NCBI GenBank assembly: GCA_023665205.1
Contig: JAMPEJ010000001.1
Coordinates: 152,116-216,115 of the forward strand
DNA: 64,000 nucleotides
Reading direction: 5' to 3'
From: Corallococcus sp.
GTDB taxonomy: Bacteria > Bacillota > Clostridia > Christensenellales > CAG-314
A program made the position numbers and the translations under genes. A model generated the notes under the pieces. It saw only the letters and a program-made list of their open reading frames with translations, had not been told where the DNA came from and searched no databases. Positions 50,186-50,914 of this stretch are shown here, in pieces. Numbering within the stretch: position 1 is the first letter of the stretch; each line of letters opens with the position of its first letter.

Positions 50186-50914
50186 TTAATACGCGCACTC
50201 CAACAACATTTTATCTGCCAAAAGCGCTATAAATTCGCCGTTAGTAGGTTTTTCAGACGAAGTATAAACCTTTACGCCGAAAATATTGTTGATATTCTCT
50301 ATTTTGCCGCGGTTCCAAGCCACTTCTATCGCATGACGGATCGCTCTTTCCACTTTACTGGGCGTAGTGTTAAATTTTTTGGCAATGGAAGGATACAATG
50401 CCTTAGTAATTGCATTTATAATAGGCGGATTTTCTACAGCCAATTTTATGCCTTCCCGCAAAAATTGGTAGCCCTTTATATGCGCAGGTATACCAACCGT
50501 AACAAAAATATTGCTTATGCGTTCATCCAACGTTTTTTCCGAAACGCTTTTTTTGCGCAATACTTTACCGCCCAACTTTTCGCCTTCAGCCACGTTGGTT
50601 ATACGCTGTTCCAAAACGCTGAATTCCAAAGGCTTTACCAAATAGTATTTCGCACCTTGATCCAACGCTTTGATAACAAATACCTCGCTTTTCAATTCTG
50701 AAGCCACGATAAATTTAACGTCGCGATATTTTTCCAAAAGCGCATATCCGTCCTCGCCCGACATCATCAATTCAGTAATAACTACGTCAGCAGATACGGT
50801 ATCCAAGTAATGCCTGGCATCGCGACCGTCTACGCTGTAAACGACTTGGAAATTTTCTTGAGTTTCCAATTTTTCTTGTAACCCGGGCTGCCCGATCAAT
50901 CCGATTTTAATCAT
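50186..50914 (-). CDS. spo0A: Spo0A-family regulator with a degenerate (pseudo-)receiver domain
   Basis: Start at ATG 50914 (GGGAGGG 6 nt upstream). The C-terminus is canonical Spo0A ([60 protein letters not shown]). The receiver has Glu at the acceptor site ([14 protein letters not shown]) and GQ in place of the acidic DD pair (IGLIGQPG). Confidence 0.85.
   Translation of the reverse strand: [242 protein letters not shown]

Follow-up and report, generated by a model that had tools for sequence, protein, structure and literature searches.

The DNA analysed here is a 64,000-nt stretch (the window; coordinates count from its first letter) of contig JAMPEJ010000001.1, deposited as Corallococcus sp., and the gene in question is a spo0A-like coding sequence on its reverse strand. 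The reading frame opens with an ATG codon behind a GGGAGGG ribosome-binding site and encodes a receiver domain, a linker and a Spo0A-type DNA-binding domain (Table 1). Upstream of it lie the gene for a 128-amino acid membrane protein without a family and then mgtE, and downstream lies a gene for a TetR-family regulator. The receiver has glutamate at the phospho-acceptor position and has lost the acidic pair that binds magnesium, and the acidic pair is missing throughout a clade of uncultured gut bacteria in which the gene is under selection.

By architecture, score and fold, the gene is a member of the Spo0A family. Pfam profiles matched both domains, Spo0A_C (PF08769) at 2.3e-40 over residues 133-235 (profile positions 1-103 of 104) and Response_reg at 3.1e-12 (47.1 bits against a cutoff of 30.2), with residues 12-105 aligned to profile positions 14-110; the part of the Response_reg profile that holds strand beta1 and the acidic pair has no counterpart in the protein. 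The NCBIfam equivalog TIGR02875 (spore_0_A) was passed narrowly, with 212.5 bits against a cutoff of 200, and its match begins at profile position 18. A search of 5.8 billion proteins returned the 100% identical NCBI protein under three accessions (MCM1289222.1, MCM1359290.1 and MCM1394682.1), labelled [quoted passage not shown]. A longer, 297-amino acid open reading frame from an in-frame TTG at 51079 was rejected as the gene, as it overlaps the upstream terminator and the promoter; the homologues, which all begin M/V-I-K/T-I-G-L, give that start no support.

In a PDB search the C-terminal half matched two solved Spo0A effector domains, 1lq1 and 1fc3, at 1e-38, and its last 120 aligned residues are 54% identical to the C-terminal domain of Bacillus/Clostridium-type Spo0A. 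The protein and B. subtilis Spo0A have the same recognition-helix sequence, with E189, R190 and R193 corresponding to B. subtilis E213, R214 and R217, which we take to be the base-reading residues of the 1LQ1 Spo0A-DNA complex. Foldseek superposition of the predicted model on this complex gave a target TM-score of 0.94 and a root-mean-square deviation of 1.2 Å. The canonical DNA-binding domain claimed in the original prediction, which had been made from the letters of the window, is thus borne out by profile, recognition-helix residues and fold, and this domain is expected still to recognise 0A boxes.

At the acceptor position of the receiver, HMMER pairwise alignments set Glu48 (codon GAA) against the acceptor aspartate of the solved receivers 9phz (B. 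subtilis) and 1dz3/1qmp, within pdvlvlDIimphldg, and a MAFFT alignment to B. subtilis Spo0A placed it in the same column. After strand beta1 the protein reads G8-Q9-P10-G11 with a five-residue gap relative to VADDNRELV of B. subtilis in the MAFFT alignment; the HMMER alignments to solved receivers, like the Pfam match, start only at residue 12. Where Spo0A has its hallmark residues (B. subtilis D56, D10 and D11), this protein therefore has Glu48, and Gly8-Gln9 followed by the deletion. The AlphaFold2 model, built with 67 homologues, has a mean predicted local distance difference test (pLDDT) score of 86.7, with block means of 90-96 in the receiver, and forms a regular (beta/alpha)5 fold in which beta3 spans residues 44-47, Glu48 follows directly after it, and helix alpha1 is unusually short (residues 12-17). 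Compared with the phosphorylated Spo0A receiver 1qmp, the model reached a target TM-score of 0.81-0.84 in Foldseek. The switch residues are kept: in the alignment block, Ser72 in FIVASE stands under IMLTAF and Lys94 in YLVKP stands under FILKP, and in the homologue alignment (A1) Tyr91 is invariant and Lys94 is present in at least 90% of sequences.

Without its metal-binding pair, a receiver domain is chemically unable to carry out phosphotransfer. Because the three acidic catalytic residues are gone, this established chemistry is strong grounds for regarding the receiver as phosphorylation-incompetent. On these points the original prediction stands, as pairwise alignments, multiple alignment and the end of beta3 in the model agree on glutamate at the acceptor, the Asp-Asp pair is absent, and the beta5 lysine and the Ser/Thr position that it had named as retained landmarks correspond to Lys94 and Ser72 in an otherwise regular receiver fold.

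Table 1. Features of the spo0A locus and of related regions. Coordinates are those of the window unless a locus is named.
Feature	Coordinates	Strand	Basis or remark
spo0A-like coding sequence, 242 aa + stop	50914..50186	(-)	open reading frame, sequence
Receiver (REC), residues 1-105, aspartate-less	50600..50914	(-)	Response_reg, AlphaFold, Foldseek, dN/dS
Interdomain linker, residues 106-130	50525..50599	(-)	pLDDT <50 at residues 113-125
Spo0A_C DNA-binding/transactivation domain, residues 131-242	50189..50524	(-)	Pfam PF08769, PDB, Foldseek
Glu48 codon GAA, phospho-acceptor position	50771..50773	(-)	alignment to Asp56/Asp55 of solved Spo0A receivers
Gly8-Gln9 codons in place of Mg-binding Asp-Asp pair, then 5-residue deletion	50888..50893	(-)	MAFFT
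Retained switch-residue stretch: Ser72 (50699..50701), Tyr91, Lys94 (50633..50635)	50633..50701	(-)	alignment
Ribosome-binding site GGGAGGG	50927..50921	(-)	
Extended -10 element TGTGTTATAAT	50945..50955	(-)	read from sequence
0A-box-like heptamer GTCGACA (third)	50974..50980	(-)	sequence
Tandem 0A-box-like heptamers TTCGATA (51020..51014) and CTCGACA (51010..51004)	51004..51020	(-)	sequence
Intrinsic terminator after spo0A	50137..50153	(-)	scan: 7-pair stem, then TTTTTTATTG
Intrinsic terminator of upstream 128-aa membrane-protein gene	51043..51062	(-)	8-pair stem, 6 GC pairs, T run
TetR-family regulator gene, most constant neighbor of spo0A	49419..50006	(-)	NCBIfam, TetR-type N-terminal helix-turn-helix region only
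Cys-rich 213-aa protein	48642..49283	(-)	syntenic with spo0A-tetR in 34 of 50 loci
M-box (Mg2+) riboswitch RF00380, leader of mgtE (51871..53262)	51625..51783	(+)	101.8 bits
ftsZ, followed by 79-aa low-complexity Ser/Lys/Thr-rich protein and acyl carrier protein gene	33474..34982 and 32440..32664		
YtxC-like protein upstream of thrS	30732..31499	(-)	34.1 bits against Pfam cutoff of 33.1, marginal
SpoIIID gene, locus L041	3441..3683		PF12116
SpoIIID gene, locus L044	9454..9774		PF12116
SpoIIID gene, locus L045	1077..1322		PF12116
SpoIIID gene, locus L055	9426..9755		PF12116

The same protein search also recovered about 100 clusters that are 55-88% identical. Among 116 aligned homologues the acceptor is Glu in 78 sequences and Asp in 38, and the old second acidic position holds Gln in 86 of them and Asn in another 11. 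Throughout the short-receiver clade, the Asp-Asp pair is replaced by G, E, C, S or A followed by Q or N, and the five-residue deletion is present as well; a canonical acidic pair with an Asp acceptor occurs only among the more distant homologues of this alignment. One genome of each GTDB species was scanned with the receiver-domain alignment as query, which yielded 50 loci, all from metagenome-assembled genomes (MAGs) and including the named genomes Candidatus Fimimonas gallinarum, Candidatus Fimimonas merdipullorum and Candidatus Limihabitans. The acidic pair is missing in 46 independent loci, with Glu at the acceptor in 42 and Asp in four (L040-L042 and L045); in the translated loci, all Fimimonas-like genomes carry Glu. 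Fimimonas is GTDB genus CAG-1435 of family CAG-314 in the order Christensenellales, with genomes of ~1.4 Mb (PMC8035907).

Since the acidic pair is absent from ~100 clusters and from 46 MAG loci, a read error is excluded, as the original prediction had argued from the loss of three independent residues. That the gene is an artefact of sequencing or assembly, or a pseudogene in the receiver part, is in any case hardly credible, given an intact frame with ribosome-binding site, promoter and terminator, the confidently modelled fold and the substitution pattern. Median ratios of nonsynonymous to synonymous substitution (dN/dS; Nei-Gojobori, codon alignments of the loci) were lowest in Spo0A_C (0.025), followed by the receiver (0.078) and the linker (0.13); the values are rough because dS is high. 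The receiver is under purifying selection and is clearly not decaying.

On a neighbor-joining tree rooted with B. subtilis, with state changes counted by parsimony, the acceptor changed between Asp and Glu at least nine times within the acidic-pair-less clade, and to no other residue, and the second acidic position, almost uniformly lost in the short-receiver clade, needed four changes. What the clade has kept is a carboxylate at the acceptor, the Ser/Tyr/Lys triad and, where a metal-binding residue used to be, an amide (Gln or Asn). Because the acceptor flips between Glu and Asp, it is an acidic side chain that selection keeps there, and not specifically a Glu phosphomimic. The proposal that the glutamate acts as a partial phosphomimic loses weight on this account, and also from earlier work in which the Asp-to-Glu change by itself did not render Spo0A constitutive but left it unactivated (PMC4395418, citing Green et al. 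1991).

The strict retention of an acidic acceptor, with Ser72, Tyr91 and Lys94 beside it, could alternatively mean that the old site is still modified, by phosphorylation or methylation of Glu or by metal-independent phosphorylation of Asp in the Asp-bearing members, and that kinase-type control persists. We regard this as very unlikely, as loss of the metal-binding pair abolishes phosphotransfer in receivers, the partner-docking helix alpha1 is shortened by five residues, and no kinase gene was found in any neighborhood examined. A review of aspartate-less receivers (ALRs) raises Glu modification as a possibility, although according to the same review no bacterial signalling through Glu phosphorylation is known (PMC4395418).

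ALRs are a known class, and the protein has its defining features, namely a receiver fold with a non-Asp acceptor (Glu48), retained Ser72, Tyr91 and Lys94, and Gln9 at the second acidic position. With ChxR especially, and also with RitR and FrzS, it shares the receiver fold, the replaced acceptor, the retained Lys and Ser/Thr-Tyr switch and the loss of the second acidic residue. ChxR of Chlamydia is the closest characterised analogue, though its output domain is of the OmpR/PhoB type and the one here is Spo0A_C. ChxR dimerises constitutively and activates transcription from its own promoter, and a like activity may be supposed for the Spo0A-like protein. In the ALR survey, Glu is the commonest replacement of the acceptor (26%), the second acidic residue is usually lost while the Lys and switch residues are usually kept, the pocket is held by electrostatic contacts with the Lys, and ChxR of Chlamydia trachomatis, itself Glu-bearing, binds DNA constitutively without phosphorylation in vitro (PMC4395418). 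Most ALRs (65%) keep the first residue of the acidic pair (PMC4395418), whereas here both are lost.

Of the 391 Response_reg~Spo0A_C proteins in the S6 table of the 2015 ALR census, 7 are counted as aspartate-less, without description (PMC4395418), and a full-text literature search brought up no paper on a lineage with a natural aspartate-less Spo0A, this table being the only trace. Among ~105 full-length Spo0A-like representatives nearest the query (50%-identity clusters), a sample biased toward relatives of an aspartate-less protein, ~22 lack the acceptor Asp and have E (9), G (5), N (4), S (2), Q (1) or Y (1) instead; acceptors were called from a MAFFT alignment and checked by eye with the rule that the acceptor lies seven residues before the DG motif. 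The variant is therefore less singular than the original prediction implied. What is new is a clade-wide, natural aspartate-less Spo0A; Spo0A and ALRs are both already known, and no new category is needed.

Other Spo0A-like lineages (L049, L050 and cluster representatives such as P0123, P0128, P0135 and P0165) carry a different residue at the acceptor (Gln, Asn, Gly, Ser or Tyr), and some of them have an intact Asp-Asp pair; L049 and L050 form a separate lineage that keeps the pair and has Gln. This suggests that phosphorylation was lost repeatedly and independently in Spo0A homologues of uncultured Clostridia. The top-scoring cluster representatives (P0121, P0122, P0125 and P0127) are 390-455 amino acids long with three to four separate Spo0A_C-like stretches, which looks like an unusual multi-Spo0A_C architecture.

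The promoter of spo0A bears on what the retained DNA-binding domain may do. Because intrinsic terminators lie on both sides, spo0A is a single-gene unit. Its extended -10 element has the consensus tGTGnTAnAAT, which 37 of 45 upstream regions in the clade retain. These 45 orthologous promoters have little sequence in common except this element and the motif atTTTTCGACAAaaat; the core of the motif, TTCGACA, is the 0A box TGTCGAA read on the opposite strand. Of the 45 promoters, 34 have the core exactly and 42 have it when one mismatch is allowed, against a background density of 0.24 0A boxes per kb over 774 kb from the same genomes. In 28 of 44 promoters a distance of 59-60 nt separates the start of the box from the -10 hexamer downstream of it, with flanks that vary, and a relative with a canonical Asp-Asp pair and Asp acceptor (L057) has the same layout of box and promoter. 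The window equivalent of this main box is CTCGACA, the second of two tandem heptamers that are spaced 10 nt start to start and each differ from TTCGACA by one mismatch. A third heptamer, GTCGACA, lies 24 nt upstream of the -10 hexamer, at about -42 to -36 from the deduced start site, where it may be a functional 0A-box-like element near the -35 region. As an exact 0A box stands at a fixed distance upstream of the extended -10 element in most spo0A promoters of the clade, this layout argues for retained 0A-box binding and autoregulation of spo0A.

In several loci, further CGACA cores lie in the interval from the main box to the -10 element. In L004 and L005 there are five tandem cores (AAAAACGACA) with an exact 10-nt period ~20-110 nt upstream of spo0A, an array that looks like an expanded set of 0A half-sites. 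For tetR, the Cys-rich protein, the phosphoesterase, mraZ and rsmH, an exact box within 300 nt upstream was found in at most four loci each. A TGTCGAA conserved upstream of mgtE in 29 of 34 loci (51712..51718 in the window) was rejected as a 0A site because it lies within the M-box riboswitch, and the remainder of the 188 boxes in the 774 kb, beyond the spo0A promoter and the M-box, look like background.

The gene order, namely the 128-amino acid membrane protein, spo0A, tetR, the Cys-rich 213-amino acid protein, a metallophosphoesterase, mraZ and rsmH, is kept in ~40 of the 50 loci. Since this synteny is conserved across the clade, the gene is better read as a spo0A orthologue than as a mobile paralogue, and the neighborhood fits vertical inheritance of a single locus. 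The tetR gene adjoins spo0A in 47 of the 50 loci, including the distant L047 and L048 and those in which spo0A is inverted; the exceptions are L013, where the locus stops shortly past spo0A, and two short loci, L045 and L049. It also stands beside spo0A in L055 and L056. The Cys-rich protein is 76-88% identical across MAGs, about as conserved as Spo0A, and has no match in Pfam, NCBIfam or PDB. In six loci (L018, L019, L027, L029, L030 and L032) spo0A alone is inverted relative to the flanking tetR and membrane-protein genes, and through this single-gene inversion spo0A and tetR are divergent there.

A canonical, phosphorylatable Spo0A encoded elsewhere in the genome would make the present copy a paralogue with an accessory or antagonistic role, for example in competing for 0A boxes. 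Some room for this is left by the 64 kb of the genome that were inspected, by the many divergent metagenomic Spo0A-like proteins, including those with several Spo0A_C stretches, and by the fact that the gene is not beside spoIVB. We nevertheless consider it improbable, given that the Prokaryotic Genome Annotation Pipeline (PGAP) names the same protein Spo0A in three assemblies, that the score lies above the equivalog cutoff, and that, besides the conserved synteny, the clade forms a single group on the neighbor-joining tree, one step beyond those canonical homologues that lie nearest the outgroup. A genome of ~1.4 Mb with ~1,240 genes also leaves little room for regulatory duplicates.

The original prediction had further cast the protein as the master regulator of entry into sporulation, and here the genomic context offered no support. 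Beyond a marginal YtxC-like match, no sporulation gene is present among the ~52 housekeeping genes of the window, which include tig-clpP-clpX-lon-ysxC, uvrBA, polA, thrS, the dcw cluster, ftsA-ftsZ, mgtE, pyruvate:ferredoxin oxidoreductase (PFOR), lysS and greA. Three positions are normally occupied by sporulation genes, spoIVB upstream of spo0A, spoIIGA-sigE-sigG after ftsZ, and lonB between clpX and lon. All of these genes are missing from their usual positions in the window: spo0A lacks the spoIVB neighborhood, ftsZ is followed by genes for a low-complexity protein and an acyl carrier protein, and clpX is directly followed by lon. In the dcw cluster, the one penicillin-binding protein scores below the SpoVD cutoff, and FtsW scores above the FtsW cutoff and below that of SpoVE. 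Possibly the YtxC-like gene is what is left of a sporulation-associated gene that has stayed in its usual place.

The nearest canonical Spo0A genes, by contrast, have six sporulation genes in the ~54 kb around them, YabP and YabQ near that of L051, and SipL, SpoIIR, a SleB-like hydrolase and YpeB near that of L053. None was found in the neighborhoods of the acidic-pair-less Spo0A genes of L040, L047/L056 and L048, nor on the contig of a strain-level relative (recognised by a upp match) over ~7 kb past the right edge of the window; exact-protein look-ups with two open reading frames at the window edges, with a trimmed gene start at the left edge and with the protein P0001 gave no matches. The sporulation-master framing is further weakened at family level, as a 93%-complete, 1.405-Mb MAG of CAG-314 was called non-sporulating by a published classifier (ensemble 0.006). 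The Fimimonas Spo0A probably does not control a full sporulation programme, and the copy described here is no evidence that the organism forms spores.

Taken together, we consider it fairly probable that the gene encodes a Spo0A orthologue whose receiver is aspartate-less, a natural form that occurs clade-wide and is maintained by selection in small-genome gut Christensenellales; it would act on 0A boxes including those of its own promoter, and its output would be set by expression level or a partner and not by kinases. The receiver has become an aspartate-less pseudo-receiver, with loss of the metal-binding pair and shortening of the beta1-alpha1 loop and helix alpha1, a region that is ordinarily the docking surface for kinases and phosphotransferases. 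Presumably no longer able to take a phosphoryl group, it would most likely serve as a dimerisation and control module that is constitutive or gated in some other way. The C-terminal domain would keep 0A-box recognition, and the single-gene promoter carries conserved 0A boxes upstream of the extended -10 element. From a receiver without phosphotransfer and an autoregulatory 0A-box promoter it would follow that output is probably set by the autoregulated expression level, possibly with a partner or ligand, in place of a phosphorelay.

With Spo0A of Bacillus and Clostridium, the protein shares the two-domain architecture, the length class, the recognition helix and 0A boxes in its own promoter; unlike these it has Glu48, no Asp-Asp pair and a five-residue deletion that shortens the beta1-alpha1 loop and helix alpha1, and its gene has no spoIVB neighbor, no sporulation genes nearby and a constant TetR-family neighbor. 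Phosphorylation-independent Spo0A is known from the laboratory, as the sad67 in-frame receiver deletions and the receiver-less Spo0A-C. In these, too, Spo0A output is uncoupled from the phosphorelay through a change in the receiver, but they are engineered or selected mutants of a sporulating host, whereas the present form is natural, clade-wide and under selection, with a nearly full-length receiver.

Several observations count against the explanation that we favor. The DNA inspected amounts to 64 kb of ~1.4 Mb, and a canonical second spo0A, kinases and sporulation genes may lie elsewhere. Phosphorylation incompetence and DNA binding are both predictions from sequence. The main box in the window is one mismatch off the consensus, and across the window 0A boxes are not enriched (7 found, 11.2 expected). 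The base learners of the classifier scored the same CAG-314 MAG near 0.5. Finally, in four sister lineages a true SpoIIID gene (PF12116; VSKSTVHKDL...RGG.AT) lies immediately upstream of, and divergent from, an acidic-pair-less spo0A, from which it follows that an aspartate-less Spo0A may coexist with part of the sporulation cascade.

This last observation bears on the possibility that the lineage does sporulate and that its aspartate-less Spo0A is the master regulator of a kinase-free switch, working through positive autoregulation or a partner. Passage of the TIGR02875 threshold, the conserved DNA-binding and sigma-contact regions, the retained autoregulatory promoter and the marginal YtxC-like gene would all agree with such a switch, and segmented filamentous bacteria are an example of small genomes that are able to sporulate. 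At the spo0A-adjacent position, however, SpoIIID is absent from the Fimimonas-type loci and from the window. A search with a sister SpoIIID as query returned only ~10 clusters at ≥63% identity, as against ~90 Spo0A clusters of the Fimimonas clade, which is weak evidence and a weak hint that Fimimonas has no SpoIIID; its best match (L058) is from a sister lineage without spo0A at that site. With the ~52 window genes and the usual positions devoid of sporulation genes, the richer surroundings of canonical Spo0A genes and the non-sporulating call for CAG-314, we hold a kinase-free sporulation switch to be unlikely. A family-wide form of it, in which the sole Spo0A is phosphorylation-independent and positively autoregulated and still launches a reduced sporulation programme, keeps some standing because the sister lineages have spoIIID beside spo0A, and seems to us quite unlikely.

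Among developmental master regulators that are driven by phosphorylation, Spo0A is the textbook case. A natural, selected and clade-wide form that is presumably non-phosphorylatable would mean that its DNA-binding half can persist and be reused after the signalling input is lost, and would make the clade a natural experiment on Spo0A activation without a phosphoryl group. Were a kinase-free switch to operate after all, control of sporulation entry would have passed from a phosphorelay to expression level or a partner protein. The finding is of some evolutionary interest and is of practical relevance to studies that use spo0A as a marker of sporulation. When metagenome-assembled genomes are screened for “sporulation potential”, the first filter applied is the presence of spo0A (PMC11536998). 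Aspartate-less copies such as this one are annotated plainly as “sporulation transcription factor Spo0A”, and ~22 of the ~105 related representatives likewise have no acceptor Asp; such copies would inflate sporulation estimates unless the acceptor residues are checked.

Two further observations were made. NCBI taxonomy (taxid 2840648) places Candidatus Fimimonas under Myxococcaceae, hence the label “Corallococcus sp.” on proteins of these MAGs; GTDB places CAG-1435 in Christensenellales, and the gene content of the window is plainly Clostridia-like. The Corallococcus label is a taxonomic misplacement. Between spo0A and tetR, a conserved AAAAATGAAAA motif is found at 50060..50110 and in the equivalent region of ~25 loci, just after the spo0A stop codon or terminator and upstream of the tetR promoter (TTGCAA-17-TGnTAcAAT), as a possible regulator site or UP element.

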